In this document: positions 4,130 through 54,216 of the stretch, one piece after another
How positions within the stretch are numbered: position 1 is the stretch's first letter
How the letters are laid out: each line of letters starts with the position of its first letter
Virus record (IMG/VR): IMGVR_UViG_3300019458_000010
Span: 1-54,216 of that record
Strand: one strand, 5' to 3'
Source: a virus
Length of the DNA: 54,216 nucleotides
Position numbers and translations under genes: made by a program
Notes under the pieces: model-generated
The model's database searches: none
Seen by the model: only the letters and a program-made list of their open reading frames with translations
What the model was told of the DNA's origin: nothing

Positions 4130-4645
4130 ATGAAGAAAGGTTTCAGTGGCACGAACGAGCTTACACAACCATCCTCAACCAAATGCGTCACCACCCTCCA
4201 CCCACCTCATCCGAAAGTGATTTACTTAATCGGCAGCCTACGTAATTCTGGCATTCCACTCATTGCAAACCAACTTCGAAAATTGGGCTACGACGTTTTT
4301 GATGACTGGTTTGCACCAGGACCAAAGGCCGATGATTGGTGGCAACACTATGAGACAACGAGAGGAAGAACATACGAGGAAGCCCTTGATGGGTATGCAG
4401 CAAAACATATATTCGAATTCGATTTCTCTCACCTATTGTGGGCCAACATCGCAATACTGGTCATGCCCGCTGGAAAGTCCGGCCACCTCGAACTCGGTTG
4501 GTTACTCGGACGTGGAGTACCTGGATATATTCTATTCGATCGTGTCCCGGAACGTTGGGACGTAATGTATCAGCTCGCTAACGGCGTCTTTTTCACTTTC
4601 GAGGGACTACGTGATACTCTCACCCGCAACCATTCGCCATCTTAA
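4130..4645 (+). CDS. Nucleoside 2-deoxyribosyltransferase-fold protein (copy 1)
   Basis: AAGGAG RBS 4 nt before ATG. Pattern KVIYLIGSLRN...ILVMPAGKSGHLELGWLLGRG resembles NDT-like Rossmann proteins. Called from motif memory only. Confidence 0.5.
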   Translation: MKKGFSGTNELTQPSSTKCVTTLHPPHPKVIYLIGSLRNSGIPLIANQLRKLGYDVFDDWFAPGPKADDWWQHYETTRGRTYEEALDGYAAKHIFEFDFSHLLWANIAILVMPAGKSGHLELGWLLGRGVPGYILFDRVPERWDVMYQLANGVFFTFEGLRDTLTRNHSPS

Positions 4646-5066
4646 GCTAGTTCATCCTTGCGTTGATGCACAAAGGTCCCATGGCGTTTCGTTCGGTCTT
4701 GGTCACGCTGGCTATGATGTTCGCATTGCCAAACACCATTGGTTATACCCTGGCCAGTTCCAGTTAGGATCAACCATGGAACGCTTTATACTACCCGATA
4801 ACGTGTTAGGAGTTGTTCATGATAAGTCTACTTGGGCTCGTAAGGGCCTATCGGTGTTCAACACTATCTTGGAACCAGGGTGGGAGGGACATTTAACATT
4901 AGAACTAGTCAATCACCATAATGAAGGGCTTTATATTCCATCAGGAGTAGGAATTGCCCAAGTTGTCTTTCACCTTCTAGACTGCGCTACTGACAACCCC
5001 TATCGAGGGAAGTACCAGAATCAAAAAGCAGGCATACAGGAGGCTATCTTTGAGTCAGCTAATTAA
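4611..5066 (+). CDS. dcd: dCTP deaminase / dUTPase-superfamily enzyme
   Basis: GYDVR, KSTWARKGL, EPGWEGHLTLELVN, GIAQVVF, YRGKYQNQ in Dcd-like order. GAGGG RBS before GTG 4611. Confidence 0.8.
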   Translation: MILSPATIRHLKLVHPCVDAQRSHGVSFGLGHAGYDVRIAKHHWLYPGQFQLGSTMERFILPDNVLGVVHDKSTWARKGLSVFNTILEPGWEGHLTLELVNHHNEGLYIPSGVGIAQVVFHLLDCATDNPYRGKYQNQKAGIQEAIFESAN

Positions 5067-6880: not shown

Positions 6881-7311
6881 TGGAAAAGCGTTGCGATTTT
6901 TGTGGATACTCTCCTGACCTAGCACTTACCCCAGAAGAGATGTCCGAAGAGGAAAAGATAGCGGCCCTTCAAATGTTCGGTGGACCAGACCATGAGGGCG
7001 GGCCGCTGCGAACACCCGAGCAATGTTACGAACTCTTTCTACATCATCGTTTGGGTTCGTCTGCCGATTGGCTCCCCGAAGAGGGTCCAATTACAACACA
7101 ATTCGGACCCAAGTGGATATCTCATCCAGAACGCCAATTAGAGCCGTGGCCACGTGATAATTATGGCATACTTTGGTGGCCTGGCCGGGAGTATGGTTAT
7201 CCCGATCCAACTCTCCGTCCCACACATAAGTACGAACGTGTATACAAGTGGGTTCGAGACAAATTCAAAAACCTCATTAAAGGATTAAAGGAGGCGTTGT
7301 CTAGTGCCTAA
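6880..7311 (+). CDS. Hypothetical protein
   Basis: Track ORF, ATG overlapping the upstream stop (TAATG). Confidence 0.6.
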   Translation: MEKRCDFCGYSPDLALTPEEMSEEEKIAALQMFGGPDHEGGPLRTPEQCYELFLHHRLGSSADWLPEEGPITTQFGPKWISHPERQLEPWPRDNYGILWWPGREYGYPDPTLRPTHKYERVYKWVRDKFKNLIKGLKEALSSA

Positions 7312-7711
7312 CCGATCTCTTGATGATCTGCACCCCTGGGTAAAGGCGAAGGCCGAACGATTCTTAGAGAAGTGCAGAGGCGGAGGATTCCCAGTACTAA
7401 TCTATGAAACTTGGCGATCTCCTGAAGACCAGAACGCGAGGTTTGGCGAAGGGAAATCGGATGCTCGTGCTTGGGAGTCTCCGCACCAATACGGCCTAGC
7501 CTTTGATTGTGTGCCCTTCGCAGAAGGAGGACTTGTTGCTTGGTGGGAGGCACCAGATAAAGTGTGGTCGTATCTTTACTCAATGGCAGCGGCCTGTGGT
7601 CTTGATCCTCTAGGTGATATTTACGGAGAGTATTTGCCCTGGGACAAGGGGCACTTTCAAGAGCCAGGATGGAGACTAGTAAAAGACTTGCTTCCTAAGA
7701 GGATTAACTAA
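7304..7711 (+). CDS. Peptidase M15 (VanY-like) endolysin
   Basis: SPHQYGLAFD matches SxHxxGxAxD; downstream WDKGHFQ supplies the second His. Confidence 0.8.
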   Translation: MPNRSLDDLHPWVKAKAERFLEKCRGGGFPVLIYETWRSPEDQNARFGEGKSDARAWESPHQYGLAFDCVPFAEGGLVAWWEAPDKVWSYLYSMAAACGLDPLGDIYGEYLPWDKGHFQEPGWRLVKDLLPKRIN

Positions 7712-7737: not shown

Positions 7738-8511
7738 ATGTCTAAGAATCGTCCTAAGCGAACCGGGGATGTGGCTATCACGCGTGTTCTCGCATTACCC
7801 GATATCCACTACCCTCTTCATGACCAGCGCGCTCTTTCTGCTGTTGAGAGTTTTATCCCAGACTTTAAGCCGGATATTGTTATCTACCTTGGCGATCAGT
7901 TGCAGATGGATTGTGTGTCACATTGGCTCGAAGATAAGCGTCGCCGACTCGAAGGACAAAGGCTCCTTAAGGACTATGAAGGATTCAGTCGGGTCCTTGA
8001 CCGACATATGGCGCTTGCGCCTGCTGCCAGGTTTGTCTTTATATTCGGGAATCACGAGGACTGGTGTCAACAATACATTGATCTTCACCCTGAGATGGAG
8101 GGGATGCTCGAAGTGGAGCATGCTCTTCGCCTACGAGAGAGGAACTTTGATGTCATCCCGTTTGGACAAGCATATCAGGTAGGTTACCTCTGGTACATTC
8201 ATGGCGTCTATACAAACGAACACCACGCCAAAGCCACCGCTCTTGCGTACCGTCGCAACGTTCGTTATGGCCATACTCATGATATTCAGCATCATACTCT
8301 TACTTCACCCGTCGATGTTGAGGATCGGATTTCCGCTTCCAGCATTGGTTGCCTCTGCAATGTTAATCCCCATTATCTACGTATGCGCCCGAACCGTTGG
8401 CAACTTGGTTTCAATGTGGCGTATGTCCGGTCAGACGGAACGTTCAATGACTTTACCATTGCCATCATTCAAGGAAAGTTCACCTTCGAGGGAAAAACAT
8501 ATGAAGGCTAA
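7738..8511 (+). CDS. Calcineurin-like metallophosphoesterase
   Basis: DIHYP, GDQLQMD, GNHEDW, IHG, GHTHD in canonical order. Confidence 0.8.
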   Translation: MSKNRPKRTGDVAITRVLALPDIHYPLHDQRALSAVESFIPDFKPDIVIYLGDQLQMDCVSHWLEDKRRRLEGQRLLKDYEGFSRVLDRHMALAPAARFVFIFGNHEDWCQQYIDLHPEMEGMLEVEHALRLRERNFDVIPFGQAYQVGYLWYIHGVYTNEHHAKATALAYRRNVRYGHTHDIQHHTLTSPVDVEDRISASSIGCLCNVNPHYLRMRPNRWQLGFNVAYVRSDGTFNDFTIAIIQGKFTFEGKTYEG

Positions 8512-8956
8512 TAGTAAGTACAATCAGACTGTTATTTCACCCGTGACTGTTGGAGAACGTATTTATACCTCAGGCACAAGCGGTAACGATTTTCTGCTTG
8601 AAGATATAAAAATTGAGGCGGAAAAAGGTGGTCGAAAGAATGACGACGGAAAATTACGTTATGACCTTATCTCTACTGTGGGCCTCAGACGGCTCGCCGA
8701 AGCATATACCATTGGGGCCAACAAGCCAGGCTATGGCGATAACAATTGGCGTAAAGGGCTGCGATGGGGAAGACTTTTCGCCTCTCTTATGCGCCACGCT
8801 TGGGCCTGGTGGACTGGAGAGCGTGACGATCCCGCGGATGGTCAGCACCACCTGGCATCGGTTGCCTGGATAGCGTTCGCACTAATGGAGTATGAAGAGT
8901 GTGGTATTGGCGAAGACGATAGGTGGAAGAAATACTCGGTCCCGTGTTCATCGTAG
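8501..8956 (+). CDS. MazG-like all-alpha dNTP pyrophosphohydrolase (dATP/dGTP diphosphohydrolase-type domain)
   Basis: ATG 8501 overlaps the upstream stop. KNDDGKLRYDL..LAEAYTIGA..YGDNNWRKG..MRHAWAWWTGERDD..DGQHHLASVAW pattern. The 8201..8500 part of the track ORF is a shadow of the upstream gene. Confidence 0.65.
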   Translation: MKANSKYNQTVISPVTVGERIYTSGTSGNDFLLEDIKIEAEKGGRKNDDGKLRYDLISTVGLRRLAEAYTIGANKPGYGDNNWRKGLRWGRLFASLMRHAWAWWTGERDDPADGQHHLASVAWIAFALMEYEECGIGEDDRWKKYSVPCSS

Positions 8957-8999: not shown

Positions 9000-9422
9000 A
9001 TGAAAGTCTACCTTAGCGGCACGATAGCGGGGTTAAACTACGAACAAGCAAACGCGTGGCGTGTAGATGCTACCGAGAAACTTAGAGATTTTGGTATTCA
9101 AACAATTAACCCCCTACGAGGACGGATGTTCGGAGAATCCTCCGAGGAAATCTTCGATCCCAACGAGCTTGTACATCGTGACCTCCGAGACCTTCGTGTA
9201 TGCGATATTGTTCTTGCTTATATGGACACGCTATCTCTCGGTACAGCAATGGAGATTTGGCATACCTACTACACTGAAAAGAAGCCGGTGATCTTTGTCA
9301 CAACGAATGACCAGATTCGAAATCACCCCTGGATTCATGTGACAAGTACCAAAATCTTTTGTACCCTTGATGAGGCCATCACTTATATCGTGACAAGATG
9401 GGCTGACGAGGAAGAGATTTGA
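9000..9422 (+). CDS. Nucleoside 2-deoxyribosyltransferase-fold protein (copy 2)
   Basis: MKVYLSGTIAG..., CDIVLAYMDTLSLGTAMEIW (S-x-G-T-x-x-E) typical of NDT-like proteins. Confidence 0.6.
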   Translation: MKVYLSGTIAGLNYEQANAWRVDATEKLRDFGIQTINPLRGRMFGESSEEIFDPNELVHRDLRDLRVCDIVLAYMDTLSLGTAMEIWHTYYTEKKPVIFVTTNDQIRNHPWIHVTSTKIFCTLDEAITYIVTRWADEEEI

Positions 9423-44705: not shown

Positions 44706-44734
44706 GACAGGCGAGGCGCGGGTGAGAGAAATGA

Positions 44735-44782
44735 GGGCTAGTTAGGTGTCCGAAAATCGGGCATCTAGCTGGCCCTTTTTGT
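44735..44782 (+). terminator. Strong intrinsic terminator
   Basis: 19-bp RNA hairpin 44735-44775 (4 G-U pairs, loop aaa) followed by ttttt. Confidence 0.75.
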
Positions 44783-44840: not shown

Positions 44841-45104
44841 ATGAGCGGTGATGAAAGACACCCGCACCAGGAAACACCATACGAAACCTGTCTTCAATGG
44901 CAACCAGGGGCGGTCCCGACAGTATTAAGCTTTTTTGTCTGGATCAAGGATAAAACAGGGAAATGGCAACGATGTGGCGAGCAACGAGTTTACTTGGACA
45001 TATGGGATAGCCAAGTAAACAAAGGCGACGGTGGACATATCCGAAACCCTCTGCTCAAGACCTTGCAATGGCGCTGGGATGAGCCAGAACCCCGATACAA
45101 CTGA
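44841..45104 (+). CDS. Hypothetical protein, paralogue A
   Basis: Shares VW(I/V)K..G.W...GE.RV.LD.WD...N.G.GG.IRNPLL..L.W.W with 45117..45473. Confidence 0.6.
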   Translation: MSGDERHPHQETPYETCLQWQPGAVPTVLSFFVWIKDKTGKWQRCGEQRVYLDIWDSQVNKGDGGHIRNPLLKTLQWRWDEPEPRYN

Positions 45105-45116
45105 AAGGGGCAAACA

Positions 45117-45473
45117 ATGAGCCACCAGCGACGTGAAGGCGAACCAAATGCTAACACGTTCCTGCAAAAATGTCCTACCTGCGATAAAGTGCACAGAAGG
45201 CGAAAAACCAAGCAGGTTCCTACCATTGAAACCTACCTTGAAATAAAATCAATCGATCCAAATACTAGAAAATCTTATAGTGATGCGGAACATACAATAC
45301 ATTTCACCCTATGGGTGAAACAAGGTGGGTTGTGGAATGAAGGCGGAGAGTATCGGGTGAGGCTTGACGGATGGGACGATACCATTAATGAGGGCGAGGG
45401 AGGGTACATCAGGAATCCTTTGCTAGAACAACTGCATTGGCATTGGTGCCCACCAATCTGTCGCGGTTCTTAG
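45117..45473 (+). CDS. Hypothetical protein, paralogue B (with an extra N-terminal CPTC segment)
   Basis: See paralogue A; GGYIRNPLLEQLHWHW versus GGHIRNPLLKTLQWRW. Confidence 0.6.
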   Translation: MSHQRREGEPNANTFLQKCPTCDKVHRRRKTKQVPTIETYLEIKSIDPNTRKSYSDAEHTIHFTLWVKQGGLWNEGGEYRVRLDGWDDTINEGEGGYIRNPLLEQLHWHWCPPICRGS

Positions 45474-46245: not shown

Positions 46246-46689
46246 TTGCTAATCGTCGCGGACGGCAAGTTGGCACCTGAGAGAATCAGTAAGAAGAGGA
46301 AATCAACACGTTGGCGAAAGCACCTTGTCGTGAAAAAGCCGAAAAAGCAGCTAGTCAGCAAAGGCATTTTGTTCGTGGATGGTGAGAAACACTATTTTCA
46401 GTATCCACAAAAGGGGAGCAAGATGGGCAATAAAAAGCGCAAAACAATAAGGACGAATTACAACTTCGCATATTCGCAAGGCCGCTACAAGCATAAGGAA
46501 ACGCCGCGATTCCAGGATGAGCTGCGGTATCACCCCCGTGCCGTTGACGAGGGTTATCGACAATCCTTGGAAGGCGCGGCTGACGCCATATGGGAAGCTT
46601 TCAACTGGGAAGATGCGAAGGAAGGCGGATACTATTGGAGCAGTCTGTACAAGCGACTGATTGAACTTTCCGAAGGGGAAGCACTATAA
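46246..46689 (+). CDS. Hypothetical basic protein; its C-terminal module is shared with 53663..53899
   Basis: AAGGAG before TTG 46246 (alternative ATG 46423). C-terminus AIWEAFNWEDAKEGGYYWSSLYKRLIELSEGE. Confidence 0.5.
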   Translation: MLIVADGKLAPERISKKRKSTRWRKHLVVKKPKKQLVSKGILFVDGEKHYFQYPQKGSKMGNKKRKTIRTNYNFAYSQGRYKHKETPRFQDELRYHPRAVDEGYRQSLEGAADAIWEAFNWEDAKEGGYYWSSLYKRLIELSEGEAL

Positions 46690-46949: not shown

Positions 46950-47180
46950 ATGACGCTAGACGACAAGATTTGTAAGATAATCACATTGGACGAACAAGAA
47001 CTAAACGACTTACACTTTGACCTAATGGGACTTTTCAATGAGACGGTTGACCTTTCAGAAGATGAAGCAGAGGATGATGCAGCCATATTTCCGACGTTAA
47101 GGGCCTTGTTAGAACTTATAAGTCCCGAGGTTTCCGGTGAAGAAGATAAAGAATACGAAGGTATGGAGGCCACCACATAA
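46950..47180 (+). CDS. Small acidic protein coupled to the first amidoligase
   Basis: 76 aa, D/E-rich; its stop overlaps the ATG of 47180 (TAATG). Confidence 0.55.
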   Translation: MTLDDKICKIITLDEQELNDLHFDLMGLFNETVDLSEDEAEDDAAIFPTLRALLELISPEVSGEEDKEYEGMEATT

Positions 47181-48232
47181 TGGTGTGGCAGTTCAAGCTT
47201 GACAAGACACCTGATAAATATAAGGGCCGACAAACACTTTACAGTGAATTGAAGCTTGGGGGAGACCCGGAGCTTTTTCTCACGAATCCGGATGGGCTAA
47301 TTGTAGCTCCCGAGAGTATAGGGGTGAAGCCGACAGGCCCTTACCTATACCCGGACGGGGCACAACTTGAACTACACCCTGAACCATCACATTGTCGCGG
47401 GTACATGCTAGATAACCTGCGAACCTGCCTTAGACAGGCAAAGTTAGCGGCTGACAAGCGCGAATTGCACCTGAACATTTCCCCAGCAGTCCCAGTTACA
47501 ACCCGCAACCTGCAAGAATTCCCAAAGTCTGCACTTATTGCAGGATGCGAACCAGATTTTGATGCATACACGGGAGAAACAAATCTGCGTTGGTGTGACT
47601 TTCGCAAGCATCGCACAAGGTATGGAGGGGGCCATTTACACGCAGGGCACCCCGTCCTACAAAACAATCCTAATCTCCCTTCAATTGTAGCAATGTGTGA
47701 CCTTGTCGTGGGGATATTTGACACGGCCTTAACACCAGTTCCTAAACTCGAACGGGTTAGACGACGTTTCTACGGCCGCGCAGGATGCTTCCGTCCACAA
47801 CCACATGGCTTCGAGTACCGCACATTATCAAACTCTTGGCTTCGACATCCCAGAATGGCTTTTACAATCTACGGCCTATTTCGTGATGCAATTGATTTGT
47901 GTGTTCTCCGCCCTAACAGCGCTCGTGAACTTTGGGGGAGAACCAGTCAAGATGTTGCACACATCATAAATGAAGGCGACAAGGAGGCCGCACGTCGACT
48001 GTGGGTGAAAGTTGTAGAGCCGTTCATGGTAGAACAAAATGTAAGGTTGTCTGGTTGCGTAAGTGAAGTTTTTCGCGGTTACTTAGATCTCGCCACAGAA
48101 CACGCAGTGGACTTTCCAAGTCCACCAGAACCTTCGCCAGACTGGAAAATTGAGAAAAACGAAGACTCTTTCGAAACCCACGGCAACTTTGTCGGTTCGC
48201 TAAGGGAAGTAAAGTATGAAACTGGGCGCTGA
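47180..48232 (+). CDS. COOH-NH2 ligase (glutamine synthetase/GCS2-fold amidoligase, phage phiEco32-like type), paralogue 1
   Basis: GGDPELFL, DGAQLELHPEP, RYGGGHLHAG, GFEYRTLSNSWL in the motif order recalled for phage amidoligases. Confidence 0.65.
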   Translation: MVWQFKLDKTPDKYKGRQTLYSELKLGGDPELFLTNPDGLIVAPESIGVKPTGPYLYPDGAQLELHPEPSHCRGYMLDNLRTCLRQAKLAADKRELHLNISPAVPVTTRNLQEFPKSALIAGCEPDFDAYTGETNLRWCDFRKHRTRYGGGHLHAGHPVLQNNPNLPSIVAMCDLVVGIFDTALTPVPKLERVRRRFYGRAGCFRPQPHGFEYRTLSNSWLRHPRMAFTIYGLFRDAIDLCVLRPNSARELWGRTSQDVAHIINEGDKEAARRLWVKVVEPFMVEQNVRLSGCVSEVFRGYLDLATEHAVDFPSPPEPSPDWKIEKNEDSFETHGNFVGSLREVKYETGR

Positions 48233-48977
48233 AGCAGAATTTCTGGCGCTTGACCATAGAGGCAACCCATTCACCTTAGTTGGCTTCATCCTTTCAGCCC
48301 CTGATATTATCGGGGTTGATGGGCACGAAGAGACCGTCGAAATCCGTAGTGAACCTGGAGGTTCCGCTAAGGAAGTTTTTGAGTCTGTCTCAAAGCGCGT
48401 TGCATTGTACGAAAGTGTTATTACGACAGCGCAGCTTAACAGGAAACTACCAAACAACCTTACGCGAATGCGTGCAGGGGCTTACTATGTAACTAACTTA
48501 GGTATCCACATAAACTTTTCTGGCTTGTCACCAAATGCCATTGAACCACTAGTCGTGACAATGGGCGAAGTACTGTTAAACAAGTTACTCCATCGCTGCG
48601 TTAGTGCTACCGAGCTAGTATCACGTAATAACGCTATGTCGCAGGCAATACCACACGGTGTCATACGGGTTAAAGGCGAGGGAAGTTGGTTCGAATGGAG
48701 ACAACCCTACTCTTGCCTTACGCCGATACATTTCGCTGGACTCTTACTAGGGGCTGAAATTTTCGCTCGACTAGCCGAAGTAAATCTACCAGCCTTGAAA
48801 AGACTAGCAAAAAGAGAGGACAATGAAGAACATCACATAAAAGCACTGCAGAGACTCGCTATTGACGAACCCTATCTTAAGAAGGAATGCGTAACATTCT
48901 TGAAAATGCGTGAGAAAATTCTCGCTCTAGGAAAGTTCGACTGGTCCAAGGATGTTCTTCCCGAGTGGTGCCATTAG
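48216..48977 (+). CDS. Amidoligase-fold protein, paralogue 2
   Basis: GAEAEFLAL, DGHEETVEIRSEP, LGIHINFSG, WFEWRQP parallel the motifs of 47180..48232. Confidence 0.55.
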   Translation: MKLGAEAEFLALDHRGNPFTLVGFILSAPDIIGVDGHEETVEIRSEPGGSAKEVFESVSKRVALYESVITTAQLNRKLPNNLTRMRAGAYYVTNLGIHINFSGLSPNAIEPLVVTMGEVLLNKLLHRCVSATELVSRNNAMSQAIPHGVIRVKGEGSWFEWRQPYSCLTPIHFAGLLLGAEIFARLAEVNLPALKRLAKREDNEEHHIKALQRLAIDEPYLKKECVTFLKMREKILALGKFDWSKDVLPEWCH

Positions 48978-48994
48978 TTGAAAGGAGAAAAATC

Positions 48995-49387
48995 TTGCGT
49001 GCAGAAGAGCAAAAAGACCGCCTCAAACTGCTCGAATCAATTGACCAGCATTTGGGTCGTGCAGTGAATTTGATGCATGACTACACAGCACGGTATACCC
49101 TTGACGGACTGGTACATTCAGCACACCACATGTTGAACACAGCTAAAGGCGCAATAAGCACTAGTGTTGTTCTGCTTAAAGAAATCACACTGGATCAACC
49201 TGGCCCGGCAGAAAGGACTAGGCGGGAACGGAACATAACAACTGCACGCGTACGAGGCGAACGTCTTGCCTTCAACGCCCTTGATGAGCCAGATGAGCCA
49301 CCAGATGAGCCAAACATTCCGCGGGAAGTGGCGGAGGCTATCTTCCCTGCCCTTAACCAGGATGAAGGCAACCGCGAGGAAGACTAG
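48995..49387 (+). CDS. Hypothetical protein
   Basis: AAGGAG 7 nt before TTG 48995 (track ORF 48965.. trimmed). Confidence 0.5.
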   Translation: MRAEEQKDRLKLLESIDQHLGRAVNLMHDYTARYTLDGLVHSAHHMLNTAKGAISTSVVLLKEITLDQPGPAERTRRERNITTARVRGERLAFNALDEPDEPPDEPNIPREVAEAIFPALNQDEGNREED

Positions 49388-49390
49388 CTT

Positions 49391-49753
49391 ATGGAGGCGT
49401 TTTGTTTACTTTGTTCTACTAAAACACCGGTCCCCGAGAACAATAAACTGTGTACATACCATAAGCGTTTCTATAGGCTGTGCAAAAGATGCGGACAGGT
49501 AATGTGCCGAGTAGCAACCGCGAGGGCGGCGGCAAGCCCAATGTTCTGTAGTTCCTGCATTGTAGAACACGCCGGATTCTGTGACGATTGCGGAGAACTA
49601 ATAGCAAAAGGGGAGGGGAAAATAATTTCGATGCCAAGGCATACGGTTGGCCCAAAACACCTCTGTCTGAAATGCCAGAAAGAAAGGCTACCCTTGAAGT
49701 TTACAGAGCTTGAGATAAGACCCACCGTGATGTGGGACGAGGCAACAACCTAA
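49391..49753 (+). CDS. Cys-rich (multi zinc-ribbon) protein
   Basis: CLLC, CKRCG, CSSC, CDDCG, CLKC pairs. Confidence 0.55.
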   Translation: MEAFCLLCSTKTPVPENNKLCTYHKRFYRLCKRCGQVMCRVATARAAASPMFCSSCIVEHAGFCDDCGELIAKGEGKIISMPRHTVGPKHLCLKCQKERLPLKFTELEIRPTVMWDEATT

Positions 49754-50874
49754 TGTGTGGAATTGGCGGATGGGTTGCTTTTGGTAAGGAAAGACCAGGA
49801 GCCGAAGCCATACACACTATGCTATCCTCCCTCGAAACCAGAGGGGGGGACGCAACCGGCATCGCATATGCCCCAGATTGGGGGTGTCGTAGCACAGGCT
49901 ACTGCAAGCACCATTTACCCGCAACTCAGTTTGTCAAAAACCCTGACGTAAAAAGGTACCTTGAACATGCAGGTGAGTCTCGTCTCGTTATTATGCACAC
50001 AAGAGCCGAGACGAAAGGAACGCACAAGGACAATAAAAACAATCACCCTGTTATGCGTAAGGAGGGTAAATATCTCGTTGTCCATAACGGAACACTGGAT
50101 AACGATGACGCCATTTTTGACGAGTGGAAAATCGAAAGGCAGGCCACGGTAGATACGGAAGCTCTCGCCGCTCTCTTAGATAGAGGTGATTCACCACAGG
50201 CTTCCTTGGAACAACTGGAATTCGCACGGGGCTCCTACGCTATCGCGGCAATGTGTCAAAAGACGCCAGACCACCTAATTCTGCTCCGCAGAACTAGCCC
50301 GCTTTGCTATACGTTCGATAAAGAGCGAGACCTACTTCTGTTCGCATCAACGCCTGCCGCTCTATCAAAACTGCTACAGATAGAGGAAACAAAGGCCAGA
50401 GGATTCACAACGAAACGCGCGTTTCTCGTGCGTGACTTCCCAGACGACAGCGCAATGATTATCGACTCTAGCGGCCTATGCTTCGAACATAAGCACGCTA
50501 TCGCGCAGAACGCCCCACTTGGAGGATGGGGCAAATACCCTTTAGCACGGCGATGGGCTGGCCAAACTGGCCAGGCTGGGATTAGTAATAATAAGAAATA
50601 CTTTCCATTCATAATCAAAGGTCAGGGAGGTTTGATCACGCCCACCTTCGTTGACAAGACAGCGAAAATGAAGAGCTTCCAGGTTTTCCCAATTGACAAC
50701 GATGCTGCAAAAGAGGTGAGTGTACAATGTCCTTCCTGTTGGCAATGGGTAAAGGCGGCTGAATTTAGGGGACACTGGTCTTGTCCATTGTGCAAAGAAA
50801 AGTTAATTCCACCGACAATCTTTCGGACTGTTACGGAGGCGGAGGTACATATTGGCAAAGCTCGTTCATGTTAA
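49753..50874 (+). CDS. Class-II (Ntn) glutamine amidotransferase-like enzyme with a C-terminal zinc-ribbon extension
   Basis: ATG 49753 gives MCGIGGW (Cys2 nucleophile); RGGDATGIA, MHTRAETKG..NNHP, VHNGTLDN, VDTEA; C-terminal CPSCWQW..CPLC. Confidence 0.75.
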   Translation: MCGIGGWVAFGKERPGAEAIHTMLSSLETRGGDATGIAYAPDWGCRSTGYCKHHLPATQFVKNPDVKRYLEHAGESRLVIMHTRAETKGTHKDNKNNHPVMRKEGKYLVVHNGTLDNDDAIFDEWKIERQATVDTEALAALLDRGDSPQASLEQLEFARGSYAIAAMCQKTPDHLILLRRTSPLCYTFDKERDLLLFASTPAALSKLLQIEETKARGFTTKRAFLVRDFPDDSAMIIDSSGLCFEHKHAIAQNAPLGGWGKYPLARRWAGQTGQAGISNNKKYFPFIIKGQGGLITPTFVDKTAKMKSFQVFPIDNDAAKEVSVQCPSCWQWVKAAEFRGHWSCPLCKEKLIPPTIFRTVTEAEVHIGKARSC

Positions 50875-51211
50875 CGGGTTTTACGGAGACCACTTTATTC
50901 CCTTGAAATCGTTCGACGAAAAGGGGTGGGATGGCATGATTCATTCCATAGAAAGAGAGCGTGGGTTGACAAACCCCATACGTCACTATGCTTGGCTTAG
51001 TGTAGTTGATAACGAAACATACGAGGAATCCGATGCACCTGAAGACGTTAGGGCAGCCCTTGAAAGTGTCGGCAAACGGGTGGACAAACTACATTTGTCC
51101 GTTCTGTCGGGATGGGAAGAAGGATCATTTTTGGGTGAGCCCAGACAAGAAGATAGCTTATTGTCACAAATGCGGGAAGACAACTGGCCTCACGAAGGAC
51201 ACGGAGAGTGA
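50852..51211 (+). CDS. Hypothetical protein whose 3' ~180 nt overlap the primase gene
   Basis: GGAGGT 5 nt before TTG 50852; no in-frame stop until 51209-51211. Confidence 0.5.
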   Translation: MAKLVHVNGFYGDHFIPLKSFDEKGWDGMIHSIERERGLTNPIRHYAWLSVVDNETYEESDAPEDVRAALESVGKRVDKLHLSVLSGWEEGSFLGEPRQEDSLLSQMREDNWPHEGHGE

Positions 51212-52058
51212 ATTAGTTGCGTCGGATAGGTGGGGTGGTATGCTGGGATTGAAAAATCTACTGGCAAAAGCGATAGGACACGCTGACAAGAAGGAGGAAG
51301 ATTTATTGAACGTGGACGGGCAAATGCACTATAAACCCCTGGACCTAGAAACTGTTTACGTGGGCTACAATCCCATGGAAGTTTGGGAGCTAACAGGGAC
51401 AGCAAAGCTACTCGTGGCGGATTACTGTCACAGTCACCACATTGCGCCTGTTGACCTGGCCAGGGTCGGTGCGACAATCTTATTGGGGGATTGTCACAAC
51501 ACACAACGACTATCCAACCCGAAAATTCCCTTAGTAATTTTCCTCCCAATATTTCGGGGCGGAGCCCTTGTAGCAGGTTGGGGAAGGGTCTTTAACGAGA
51601 CGAAAACAGACGGTAAGCCCTGGAAATGGCGTGGTTACGGTTTCTCGGACGGCAACGGTGCAATATTGTACACTACAGCACTGCCGCTAGCCGCGTTTGC
51701 AATGACGGAAGAAAAAGCAGAAAAAACACCCGTGGTTCTAGTAGAATCTCCCACCGACGCAATACGACTACAACGTCTAGGATGGTGGGCAGTAGCTCTA
51801 GGTGGACATACAATCACTCAGAAAGGACGCGAGGAACTAGCAAGAATGCCGCAAAAGAGTGTTATTGTGCTGCTCGATTCAGATGCGAAAAATGCCACAC
51901 TAAGTCTCGTTGCTAAAGTTCAAGCTTTCAAAAAGAAGGTCGTACCAGTCTTCATACACAGCAAAGGAGAAAGTTATATTGTGGACCCTAGTGATTTAGA
52001 TGACCACGACTTGCGAGGGTTTCTTCTAAAACCGATCCAGGAGCTTATCAATGGCTAA
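51033..52058 (+). CDS. DNA primase (Cys4 zinc finger plus TOPRIM)
   Basis: GAGGA RBS before ATG 51033; CPFC..(17)..CHKC; VLVESPTDAIRL and VLLDSDAKN TOPRIM motifs. Confidence 0.75.
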   Translation: MHLKTLGQPLKVSANGWTNYICPFCRDGKKDHFWVSPDKKIAYCHKCGKTTGLTKDTESELVASDRWGGMLGLKNLLAKAIGHADKKEEDLLNVDGQMHYKPLDLETVYVGYNPMEVWELTGTAKLLVADYCHSHHIAPVDLARVGATILLGDCHNTQRLSNPKIPLVIFLPIFRGGALVAGWGRVFNETKTDGKPWKWRGYGFSDGNGAILYTTALPLAAFAMTEEKAEKTPVVLVESPTDAIRLQRLGWWAVALGGHTITQKGREELARMPQKSVIVLLDSDAKNATLSLVAKVQAFKKKVVPVFIHSKGESYIVDPSDLDDHDLRGFLLKPIQELING

Positions 52059-52482
52059 AAATGACGACGCGATTTTAGCTGACAAAGTGTTCGCATTGCT
52101 TAATGCGTGGCGAAACGAAGGAAATATCGGACTTTCTTTACCCTTTATAAGCTGGGCCACACAAAGTGATCCTCTAGAAGTATTTGAATTGATAGAGAAG
52201 TACTATCGGGACTATCAATTCTTGTATTGCAACCAGACCAGAATGCGGGTAATGAGACCAATTACGTATTGGTGGGACAACCATCGTAGAAGTATCGACA
52301 ACAAATATTTCGTAGGTCGGGCACGTGGGCTTTTACTTCGGGGAACACCATCACGACATAATAGAAAATGGTGTCCCCCAACAGATGAAGACTACTACTT
52401 CGTTAGCAAAGTATTGAATATCCGCAGTCTATCTCTCGAATGTCGTCAAAACCCGAAAACAAAGGAGGTAGAGTTCCTTTGA
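52051..52482 (+). CDS. Hypothetical protein
   Basis: Track ORF, ATG overlapping the primase stop. Confidence 0.55.
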   Translation: MAKNDDAILADKVFALLNAWRNEGNIGLSLPFISWATQSDPLEVFELIEKYYRDYQFLYCNQTRMRVMRPITYWWDNHRRSIDNKYFVGRARGLLLRGTPSRHNRKWCPPTDEDYYFVSKVLNIRSLSLECRQNPKTKEVEFL

Positions 52483-53228
52483 TAATTTTGGGTAAAGGTG
52501 CTTCTGTTCGCGCATTGCGACAAGAGTTACGTGATTTACCTAATGTTGGGCCAGTAGTCCGTTGGGGTGCCAAGGATGAAGGGCTACTCGACATACATCC
52601 GATGGTGCCAGTACTTAACAGGAGAATTGTATTTGATAAACACCAACAGCTAAAAGAGTTTGCAAGAGCAGAGATTCCGAGTCCACGGGTAATTTTATTG
52701 GAGGATTTTGATCATGAGTGGTGGTGGGTGGGTCGTCTTCGGTGGCTTGGTCGCCGCAGGCATCATCGCGGCGGCAACGATATTATCGGACCTATGGACG
52801 CCGACCAAATGCGAGACGCTCTCCGAGCGGGAGAAGCGGACTTCGCTGTGCAATTCATAGACAAAACACATGAATGGAGGGTGCATGTCTTCCGAGACGA
52901 AATCCTTCGAATCGCTAGGAAAGTATGGAGGGGGAATGATCCAGTTCCAGGCGGAGTTGCGTGGAACGCAGAAGCCGGATGGCACTTTCGATATAATGTT
53001 GGTCTTCAAGACACCACAAGAGGCAAACTCTCGGAATTGGCAAGACGTGCAGTTCAAGCACTCGGAATGGACTTTGGGGCAGCAGACATCGTTGCTGTTA
53101 TCAAACCTAACAGCCGTGATTACTTCGTGCTTGAAGTAAATAGTGCCCCAGGCGTTGCAGATAACGAGAATACTTTGGCCGCCTATGTAAAAGCCATAAG
53201 AAAATGGAGTGACGACTTTGACTACTAA
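52479..53228 (+). CDS. ATP-grasp enzyme (RimK-like)
   Basis: TTG 52479 lies 8 nt after AGGAGGT and overlaps the upstream TGA. IILGKGAS.., HEWRVHVF, FGAADIVAV..YFVLEVNSAPG. Confidence 0.7.
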   Translation: MIILGKGASVRALRQELRDLPNVGPVVRWGAKDEGLLDIHPMVPVLNRRIVFDKHQQLKEFARAEIPSPRVILLEDFDHEWWWVGRLRWLGRRRHHRGGNDIIGPMDADQMRDALRAGEADFAVQFIDKTHEWRVHVFRDEILRIARKVWRGNDPVPGGVAWNAEAGWHFRYNVGLQDTTRGKLSELARRAVQALGMDFGAADIVAVIKPNSRDYFVLEVNSAPGVADNENTLAAYVKAIRKWSDDFDY

Positions 53229-53403: not shown

Positions 53404-53666
53404 ACTTCCCAAAGATTTGTGCAAAATGCGGAAGCAAACTAGTTTGCATATATCATTGCCCCGACTGTGGGGGAATGATTATGGGTTATCATTGGGGAGA
53501 AAGTCCATATGGTCGTATGGCCGATGCCTGTGAGGTATGCAACGGACCATTTACAAATATAAACGAGAAAGTCAACCCGGTCCGTTGGCCTCATGGACAG
53601 GGAAGTAACGTGTGGAAATACGTTTGTGGCCCCTGTTTCAGGGGAGAAAAGGAGAAACTGTCATGA
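53400..53666 (+). CDS. Double zinc-ribbon mini-protein
   Basis: ATGA overlap start; CAKCG..CPDCG and CEVC..CGPC. Confidence 0.5.
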   Translation: MNFPKICAKCGSKLVCIYHCPDCGGMIMGYHWGESPYGRMADACEVCNGPFTNINEKVNPVRWPHGQGSNVWKYVCGPCFRGEKEKLS

Positions 53667-53899
53667 AAAGGTGTATCGCATGCGGAAGCGAACTAGCAAC
53701 CCCTTGGTCCGGCCGCGTCAAAGAAAATGACAAGAAGCGCTTGCTAGACGCAGCCGATGCCATATCGGATGCCTTCCCATGGACTCTCGCTTCGGAGGGG
53801 TTCGACTATTGGGCACAAATATATAAGAGACTCAAAAATATTTCTAAGGGAGAGTCAATACACGAGCGCCAGCGTCTCACCGAGCTTAGCCGTGAGTGA
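53663..53899 (+). CDS. Zinc-ribbon N-terminus plus a C-terminal module shared with 46246..46689
   Basis: ATGA overlap start after AAGGAG; CIACG; AISDAFPWTLASEGFDYWAQIYKRLKNISKGE. Confidence 0.5.
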   Translation: MKRCIACGSELATPWSGRVKENDKKRLLDAADAISDAFPWTLASEGFDYWAQIYKRLKNISKGESIHERQRLTELSRE

Positions 53900-54216
53900 A
53901 ATTTGGTTTACCGCAGACCACCATTTTTGTCATAAGAACATAATCAAGTACTGCAACCGTCCATTTGCGAATGTCCGGGAAATGGACGAGACAATGATAA
54001 GAAAGTGGGACACTCTTGTACAACGCGAGGATACCGTTTATCATCTAGGGGACTTTGCTTTTGCATCCAAAGCTGTCATTGCGGCTCTGCTACAAAGTCT
54101 CAATGGTCGAAAGATTCTGCTCAAAGGAAATCACGATGGTTCGTGGGCAAGACAAGCCAACGTTGGGTGGCATCATGTTTCTAAAGCAATATCCACAAAA
54201 ATAGGTGATATATGGA
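53892..54216 (+). CDS. Calcineurin-like metallophosphoesterase, N-terminal part (continues at 124..296 of the circle)
   Basis: GTG 53892 gives SEIWFTADHHFCHKNII..VYHLGDFAF..LKGNHD. DxH, GD and GNHD motifs are present; the start codon is uncertain. Confidence 0.8.
   Translation, partial: MSEIWFTADHHFCHKNIIKYCNRPFANVREMDETMIRKWDTLVQREDTVYHLGDFAFASKAVIAALLQSLNGRKILLKGNHDGSWARQANVGWHHVSKAISTKIGDIW
54094..54216. repeat. Terminal direct repeat, right copy (identical to 1..123)
   Basis: Same 123-nt string as the window start. Confidence 0.95.

Follow-up and report, generated by a model that had tools for sequence, protein, structure and literature searches.

The gene array at 46950-53228 of an uncultured phage genome of 54,216 bases (IMG/VR record IMGVR_UViG_3300019458_000010, analysed from position 1 to 54,216 and called the window here) is a reduced, rearranged and rare variant of a known phage amidoligase module, in which a clade of highly divergent ligases (clade B) replaces the Amidoligase_2 enzyme. 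An earlier note made from the sequence alone (the original prediction) had described in this array two COOH-NH2 ligase paralogues, an N-terminal nucleophile (Ntn) amidotransferase and one ATP-grasp enzyme interleaved with a primase, and had leaned towards a nucleic acid or nucleotide as their target. The open reading frames (ORFs) and motifs on which it was built are all present, and its four enzyme-fold assignments are supported by Pfam, PHROG and NCBIfam matches, by profile searches and by AlphaFold models compared with Foldseek; the catalytic frameworks of the two ligases, which have the fold of glutamine synthetase (GS), of the Ntn domain and of the ATP-grasp enzyme are retained. Its enzymology and its assignment to a known module stand, but its lean towards a nucleic-acid target does not.

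The module was reportedly predicted through comparative genomics by Iyer et al. in 2009, and the literature bears out that the gene combination had already been described for phiEco32-like and other phages. Of 50,697 GenBank phage records, 311 (mainly of Pseudomonas, Escherichia and Vibrio phages) contain homologues of the first ligase of the array (ligase A), as do 232 IMG/VR stretches. We fetched 80 IMG/VR loci and annotated them with iterated hidden Markov models (HMMs), which together with the window and five other loci gave a set of 86. An Ntn glutamine amidotransferase (GATase) is found in 80 of the 86 loci, an ATP-grasp enzyme in 81, Amidoligase_2 (PF12224) in 73, a Peptidase_C26-type gamma-glutamyl hydrolase (Pfam E 4e-21) in 65, a family of ~216 residues situated between the two ligases (phrog_11055/4877) in 55 and GGACT in 30, while all four core functions occur jointly in 74. 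Every partner in the module either forms or cleaves amide bonds of glutamine or gamma-glutamyl groups. The window shows the same four-function co-occurrence, with a PF14395 ligase, a second GS-like ligase, an Ntn GATase and an ATP-grasp enzyme. L007 (226-873) and L001 (8787-9446) provide examples from among the Peptidase_C26 and 216-residue families. A further family of ~70 residues is found downstream of the GATase or ligases in 17-23 of the 86 loci (for example L009 7840-8052, L013 7908-8123 and L090 13859-14053); its members combine a CxxC…CxxC zinc ribbon at the N terminus with a strongly acidic tail, an architecture that is LysW-like, and their C-termini are not conserved.

The replacement is seen in the distribution of the two ligase families. 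There is no Amidoligase_2 match in the window, a point that the original prediction missed, and an HMM built from the second ligase of the array (ligase B) and its close relatives matches only the second PF14395 gene of L002, L003, L005 and L021, all of which are without Amidoligase_2; the clade-B copies of L005 and L021 themselves pass the Pfam PF14395 cutoff (72 and 81 bits). Clade B thus defined occurs in five of the 86 loci, and in none of them together with Amidoligase_2, and this mutual exclusion is the pattern expected for functional replacement. Peptidase_C26 and the 216-residue family are missing from all clade-B loci: in the window no ORF matches either of them (hmmsearch, E<=10), and an iterated search with GGACT seeds gave no match there at E<=1e-3. 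Alignments of the PF14395 clades with Amidoligase_2 by hhalign were not significant (E 0.07-0.11), so the relationship between these two families rests on fold matches and on what is known from Pfam and Iyer et al.

On the plus strand the genes of the array follow closely on one another, overlapping or meeting at junctions of 1-3 nt:

46950..47180, plus strand: acidic ORF of 76 residues (isoelectric point, pI, 4.05), TAATG-coupled to ligase A
47180..48232, plus strand: ligase A, a PF14395 COOH-NH2 ligase of the GS/gamma-glutamylcysteine synthetase (GCS) superfamily with a C-terminal extension
48216..48977, plus strand: ligase B, of a highly divergent PF14395 clade, in the Amidoligase_2 slot
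48965..49387, plus strand: orf140, whose N-terminal domain is helical and whose acidic tail varies
49391..49753, plus strand: cys120, a multi-zinc-ribbon protein with 12 Cys and a weak DZR match
49753..50874, plus strand: stand-alone class-II Ntn glutamine amidotransferase domain with a tail of ~160 residues
50852..51211, plus strand: orf119, acidic, with GGAGG before its TTG start and its 3′ end overlapping the primase start
51006..52058, plus strand: DNA primase, CHC2-type Zn ribbon and Toprim (Toprim_2/Toprim/Zn_ribbon_DnaG; phrog_47, E 2.5e-16)
52051..52482, plus strand: orf143, a basic ORF between primase and ATP-grasp genes
52479..53228, plus strand: ATP-grasp ligase, RimK/Ddl/LysX-like, 249 residues from a TTG start

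The TAATG coupling of the acidic ORF to the first ligase, which the original prediction had pointed out, is a real overlap and recurs at the cys120/GATase junction, while the TTG start of the ATP-grasp gene (52479) overlaps the stop of orf143 (TTGA) and has AAGGAGG 9 nt upstream. The primase, with its Toprim and Zn-ribbon domains, does lie inside the array, as had been noted, and probably takes no part in the chemistry of the module.

With the canonical module of phiEco32-, LUZ24/PaP3/tf-, CW02- and Slicky01-type phages the window shares the PF14395 ligase, the zinc-ribbon-tailed Ntn GATase, the RimK-like ATP-grasp enzyme and a location in the early/replication arm near the primase. In contrast to that module, it is without Amidoligase_2, Peptidase_C26, the 216-residue family and GGACT, has clade B in the Amidoligase_2 slot, adds orf140, cys120 and orf119, and has the primase separating the ATP-grasp gene from the others. 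In LUZ24-like phages, COOH-NH2_lig, Amidoligase_2, GATase, ATP-grasp and an AIG2/GGCT-like gene stand ahead of the primase/helicase (PMC3890496), and Slicky01 carries the same set. The arrangement of the window is itself shared: a scan of metagenomes found the order ligA-ligB-orf140-cys120-GATase-orf119-primase…ATP-grasp in independent contigs including L122/L123 and L124, all three with the primase embedded at the same position, and L002 shares the order ligB-orf140-cys120-GATase-orf119. L122 and L123 are groundwater contigs of ~47-49 kb, in which GGACT lies further downstream.

The small proteins between the enzymes differ in how they are conserved. Homologues of orf140, which has no library match, occupy the same position in L002, L121, L124 and L128, with a positional analogue in L122, and their C-termini vary (ED, RR, RF, RQ). 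In four loci (L002, L122, L123 and L124) a cys120 homologue stands immediately upstream of the GATase and an orf119 homologue lies between GATase and primase; the alignment with L002 retains the Cys pattern of cys120. This recurrence in related contigs indicates that orf140, cys120 and orf119 are real conserved accessories of this variant, and they are lineage-specific. In the longest ORF calls, orf119 runs at its 3′ end out of frame into the 5′ part of the primase ORF, an apparent overlap of ~95-205 nt that is also seen in L122 (13665-14024 and 13927-15207) and L124 (3190-3474 and 3380-4588). For orf143 there is no library match and no homologue in related loci. The acidic 76-residue ORF, which had been counted as part of the module, matches nothing in Pfam, PHROGs or NCBIfam and has no homologue in 85 PF14395 loci and 10 clade-B metagenome loci, the closest syntenic relatives included; L122 has a non-homologous ORF of 115 residues at its position. 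Because no homologue was found in these ~95 related loci, its membership of the module is doubtful.

Ligase A is a member of PF14395. It carries the motifs GGDPELF, DGAQLELHPEP, GGGHLH and FEYR, passes the Pfam model PF14395 ('Phage phiEco32-like COOH.NH2 ligase-type 2') with 40 bits against a cutoff of 25 and matches phrog_3815 with E 2e-35, though a search against PDB sequences gave no match. All 26 of the 26 invariant columns of the family alignment (A4) are kept (G27 D29 E31, D59, E64, H152/H154, R194/R195 and E212-Y213-R214 being the invariant residues), and with them the family catalytic motifs GxDPE, D…E, HxH, RRxxYGxAGxFR and EYRT.

Ligase B (motifs GAEAEF, DGHEETVEIRSEP, LGIHINF and FEWR) is a very divergent PF14395 member with the GS/GCS fold. 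Searched directly, it has no match in Pfam (E<=1, and the Pfam cutoff is unmet), PHROGs, NCBIfam or PDB sequences, nor by tblastn against phages; a word-indexed search of 5.8 billion protein clusters gave two relatives, and an exhaustive HMMER search with the ligase B alignment gave 53 proteins, nine of them below E 1e-30. Among 50 scanned matches to the ligase B profile, 45 are PF14395 members. The AlphaFold (AF2) model made on a 50-sequence alignment (predicted local distance difference test score, pLDDT, 94; predicted template modelling score, pTM, 0.92) has YbdK (1tt4/1r8g) as its best Foldseek match in the PDB (E 2e-6; template modelling score for the query, TMq, 0.65), followed by the GCS domain of GshF and then by glutamine synthetases, PafA/Dop and gamma-glutamylcysteine synthetase (to 1e-3). 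It also matches phage structures annotated 'Amidoligase enzyme' and 'COOH.NH2 ligase-type 2', which fits a like-for-like replacement within one fold. With YbdK/GCS2 and gamma-glutamylcysteine ligases it has the framework ExE…E…H…R…ExR in common, but there is no sequence-level match to YbdK and ligase B has 253 residues against ~370. Its alignment retains the ExE, DG, ExR, H and ExR columns, the window copy keeps the residues that are invariant in the 50 sequences (G4, E8, D35, E42, R44, H98, E160 and R162), and both ligases preserve the GS-fold residues that bind metal and phosphate. The original claim that the two ligases are paralogues is right at the level of profile and fold, where hhalign aligns ligase B with ligase A at E 3.5e-4 over the N-terminal 120 columns and where the PF14395 and Foldseek matches agree, but the relationship is undetectable by pairwise BLASTP (E 0.35, not significant).

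The Ntn protein starts MCGIGGW and contains HTR…NNHP, HNG and a C-terminal CPSC…CPLC. It matches GATase_6 (E 5e-15; 56 bits, cutoff 27) and GATase_7 (3e-10) in Pfam, the GlmS N-domain in NCBIfam (7e-23) and, by sequence, the GlmS N-terminal domain in the PDB, and a HMMER alignment to 1xff (also 4amv) shows that the equivalents of Cys1, Arg26, Arg73, Asn98-Gly99 and Asp123 of GlmS are all kept. The best-scoring models for the domain are amidotransferases (GlmS, PurF and AsnB; GATase_6/7), with GATase_4 below cutoff. All library matches fall between residue 1 and ~210, and no acceptor or synthase domain such as those of GlmS, PurF and AsnB is fused to it; in the tail of ~160 residues the zinc ribbon CPxC…CPxC is the only recognised part. 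This ribbon is conserved in the close relatives L002 and L126, and example sequences from the two largest tail clusters among module GATases have CxxC pairs.

The ATP-grasp enzyme (motifs HEWRVHVF, FGAADIV and LEVNSAPG) scores below the cutoffs of the Pfam RimK model (13.7 bits; cutoff 21) and of NCBIfam rimK_fam (16.9 bits; cutoff 143) and matches phrog_2599 at 1e-22. Its family profile (A5) matches among PDB sequences RimK (8e-11), then Ddl, alpha-L-glutamate ligases and cyanophycin synthetase, and its AF2 model (pLDDT 89) matches Ddl (4e-11), ArgX/LysX and PsnB (~1e-10) in Foldseek. The invariant residues of this enzyme are K148, D203, E219 and N221, which would bind Mg and ATP.

From these folds we infer the chemistry, the order of its steps and the substrate as follows. 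The three ATP-dependent carboxylate-amine ligases (clade A, clade B and the RimK/Ddl-like enzyme) would each activate a carboxylate as an acyl-phosphate and couple it to an amine, and jointly they would make, or lengthen, a short amide or peptide of glutamate type (gamma- or alpha-glutamyl). Glutamine or a gamma-glutamyl group would be bound by the stand-alone Ntn domain; most likely this domain would hydrolyse glutamine and deliver ammonia in trans to the acyl-phosphate made by a ligase, giving a carboxamide, and less likely it would trim a gamma-glutamyl adduct, as EgtC does. The proteins orf140, cys120 and orf119 might serve as accessories or scaffolds. That the module most likely builds a small glutamate-type amide or peptide by this mechanism is a reading to which we give a little more than even weight. 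The generic chemistry of the original prediction, in which amides are ligated at the expense of ATP and the Ntn enzyme either gives ammonia or trims an adduct, is supported. Ligases of this kind are paired with glutaminases elsewhere: in MurT/GatD, AsnB/LtsA and EgtA/EgtC an ATP-dependent ligase works with a glutaminase or Ntn amidohydrolase that supplies ammonia or removes a gamma-glutamyl group, EgtA belonging to the GCS-type ligases and EgtC to the stand-alone class-II Ntn enzymes. To these systems, however, the homology is at fold or superfamily level only, and unlike EgtC/YafJ the Ntn domain of the window scores nearer to GlmS/PurF than to the GATase_4 model.

The substrate would most likely be a small molecule or peptide stem, that is, a peptidoglycan-precursor peptide or another amine or peptide metabolite. 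A cell-wall peptide is a tentative candidate and another small amine or peptide an equally tentative one; a substrate of some other kind seems doubtful, a nucleic acid or nucleotide unlikely and a protein slightly less likely again. DNA or a dedicated phage protein tag is probably not the substrate. The peptidoglycan hypothesis, the standing one in the literature, is said to trace to Iyer et al. 2009. Bacterial relatives of the PF14395 ligases have neighbours that point to peptide or amide chemistry: in Heliobacterium mobile (L102 5954-10858) a chromosomal PF14395 gene follows three tandem YheC/D-type ATP-grasp genes, and in a Thermodesulfobacteriota genome (L113 9530-11175) one is paired with GGACT beside a PMT_2 glycosyltransferase. 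In phages the module has been treated as a putative peptidoglycan-modification pathway, serving superinfection exclusion or lysis preparation (PMC11945000; PMC10580990).

Several observations weigh against this small-amide reading. Without Peptidase_C26, GGACT and the 216-residue family, the chemistry of the window may differ from that of the canonical module. No ammonia-channel partner was identified for the Ntn domain, and its tail of ~160 residues matches nothing beyond the zinc ribbon. Ligase B of the window has H100N, Y141M and G142S at positions conserved to 94-98%, changes that the original prediction missed: His100, Tyr141 and Gly142 are present in 47-49 of the 50 family members, closest relatives included, and the window copy alone differs. 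Its activity is therefore not to be assumed, and this ligase may be inactive, altered or re-specialised. All close relatives have the primase within the block, an arrangement that is compatible with a replication-linked role and is not evidence for one. The portal protein is only ~25% identical to those of the nearest cultured phages. Finally, the papers searched offer predictions only, and none reports a measurement of product, substrate or phenotype for a module member, in line with the original statement that no biochemically defined product was known.

The alternative that fares best is that the ligases put a glutamyl or amide group on a base, nucleotide or tRNA in coordination with replication, which we regard as unlikely. 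The module does lie in the replication arm, the embedded primase is conserved in L122-L124, and DCD/dUTPase-like, dATP/dGTP diphosphohydrolase N-domain, nucleoside deoxyribosyltransferase-like and uracil-DNA glycosylase (UDG)-superfamily genes are nearby; moreover, some viral contigs carry amidoligase and glutaminotransferase Pfam domains alongside thymidine-hypermodification genes (Lee et al. 2021; PMC8989533). Every non-structural gene of the phage is, however, on the plus-strand arm (42 kb to the end, then 1-10.6 kb), so proximity to replication genes is a weak argument. No thymidylate-synthase-like hydroxymethylase, aGPT-Pplase, TET/JBP, DpdA or PurZ-like family is found in plus-strand ORFs of at least 90 residues, the partners across the 86 loci are gamma-glutamyl hydrolases and cyclotransferases and not DNA enzymes, and the bacterial homologues adjoin peptide ligases. 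The window also differs from the thymidine hypermodification clusters, some of which carry the same two domains (PMC8989533), in having no Pfam match to dUMP hydroxymethylase, aGPT-Pplase or TET/JBP; in the 30 plus-strand ORFs scanned, several of them small and matching nothing, no Pfam match to such genes (dUMP/dCMP hydroxymethylase, TET/JBP, aGPT-Pplase) was found, and whether Pfam has a model for 5-HMUDK was not checked. The lean of the original prediction towards a nucleic-acid or nucleotide target is not upheld, since Pfam scans of these ORFs found no known base-modification family, proximity says little and the bacterial neighbours are YheC/D or GGACT and not DNA enzymes. Z-genome and hydroxymethyl-pyrimidine pathways were considered and set aside, as no PurZ-like or thymidylate-synthase-like ORF was found. 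A related idea, to which we give the same low weight, is that the primase-embedded block without gamma-glutamyl hydrolases might be a replication-coupled system that places a glutamyl group or carboxamide on DNA, a nucleotide or a replication protein; if true, phages would have a modification of nucleic acids or of the replisome that belongs to a new class and relies on GS-fold ligases.

A little less probable than modification of nucleic acids is Pup- or LysW-like tagging, in which one GS-fold paralogue would ligate and the other process a small acidic protein or tail, while the ATP-grasp enzyme would extend it in the manner of RimK or LysX. RimK, the glutamate ligase of ribosomal protein S6, and LysX/ArgX, which work with the LysW carrier, couple glutamate or alpha-aminoadipate to the carboxylate of a terminal glutamate. 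RimK is the best profile match and ArgX/LysX, including a complex with LysW, are among the top fold matches of the ATP-grasp enzyme, but Ddl is an equally good structural match and the module is not accompanied by any conserved S6-like or LysW-like partner. As with the Pup ligase PafA and the deamidase/depupylase Dop, two paralogous GS-fold enzymes stand in one operon and share an N-terminal GxExE motif, and the ligase B model matches PafA and Dop structurally (E 1e-4 to 5e-4); yet YbdK, a small-molecule ligase, is the better structural match, and the window has neither a conserved Pup-like small protein ending GGQ/GGE nor a proteasome/Mpa context. Acidic proteins are available in the block (the 76-residue ORF, the tail of orf140, and orf119), as are small proteins with a zinc ribbon and acidic tail in 17-23 canonical loci, but no small protein is universal to the module. 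As a Pup/LysW-like tag we rejected the 76-residue ORF, which ends …EATT and not in Gln or Glu and has no homologue in related loci; we also rejected the acidic tail of orf140 as a RimK-type substrate, its C-termini not being conserved among homologues, and the canonical zinc-ribbon family as a LysW analogue, given its occurrence in only 17-23 of the 86 loci with variable C-termini.

Least probable of all is an 'auxiliary metabolic gene' set that boosts host nitrogen, glutamate or glutathione-type metabolism with no dedicated product, as proposed for phages with amidoligase, GATase, GGCT and a glutathione-synthase-like ATP-grasp enzyme (PMC10945688, which calls such genes auxiliary nitrogen-metabolism genes; PMC10580990). 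In its favour, every enzyme of the array acts on glutamine, on glutamate or on a gamma-glutamyl group. Against it, these are highly divergent, phage-specific families rather than recently copied housekeeping genes of a host (ligase B has just two relatives in the word-indexed search and nine matches below E 1e-30 in the exhaustive one), translational coupling ties the genes closely to small lineage-specific proteins, and the Ntn domain is without any housekeeping synthase domain.

We regard the window as a source of comparative leverage and not as a new system. It shows which four functions form the irreducible core of the module, and that clade B can stand in for Amidoligase_2 along with Peptidase_C26 and the 216-residue protein, a replacement with which orf140, cys120 and orf119 travel; it also narrows the genes needed for heterologous reconstitution and for finding the product to a minimal set. 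If the product is a modification of the cell wall or of a metabolite, it would represent a new route of phage host takeover, and if it is a modification of DNA or protein, a new modification chemistry.

The rest of the genome gives the setting of the array. Its ends share an exact direct repeat of 123 bp (bases 1-123 = 54094-54216), so the window represents a complete genome of ~54.1 kb (~54,093 bp), circular or terminally redundant, and the 'circular junction' spoken of in the original prediction is correct. A minus-strand block at ~10.9-41.8 kb encodes the capsid protein, an SU10-type portal, the terminase and a ClpP-like protease. The genome has no tRNA genes, and megablast of the region against the 50,697 phage records found no nucleotide-level relative. 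A terminator-like hairpin on the plus strand at 44733-44777 (20-bp stem, T-run), 3′ of an ORF of 289 residues, is the last strong plus-strand terminator, and nothing comparable follows from 44777 up to the window's end, which makes it plausible that the array and the primase are transcribed together.

Across the junction, the same arm carries an unusual nucleotide-pool gene set (564-1397, 4611-5066, 7738-8511, 8201-8956 and 9000-9422), made up of a protein of the UDG superfamily that overlaps the start of PolA, a dCTP-deaminase/dUTPase-like protein, a metallophosphoesterase, a protein with the N-domain of dATP/dGTP diphosphohydrolase (PF18909, E 7e-29) and one resembling nucleoside 2-deoxyribosyltransferase. 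An ORF resembling Peptidase_M15/VanY at 7304-7711, probably an endolysin-type peptidase, lies in the early plus-strand arm away from the structural genes and could matter if the module truly targets the peptidoglycan stem peptide. Lastly, there are two pairs of small paralogous ORFs, 46246-46689 with 53612-53899 (BLASTP E 5e-12) and 44841-45104 with 45117-45473 (2e-17), of which the latter pair has the C-terminal motif GGxIRNPLLxxLxW; similar ends are found on ORFs upstream of the module in L126 and, more loosely, in L122.

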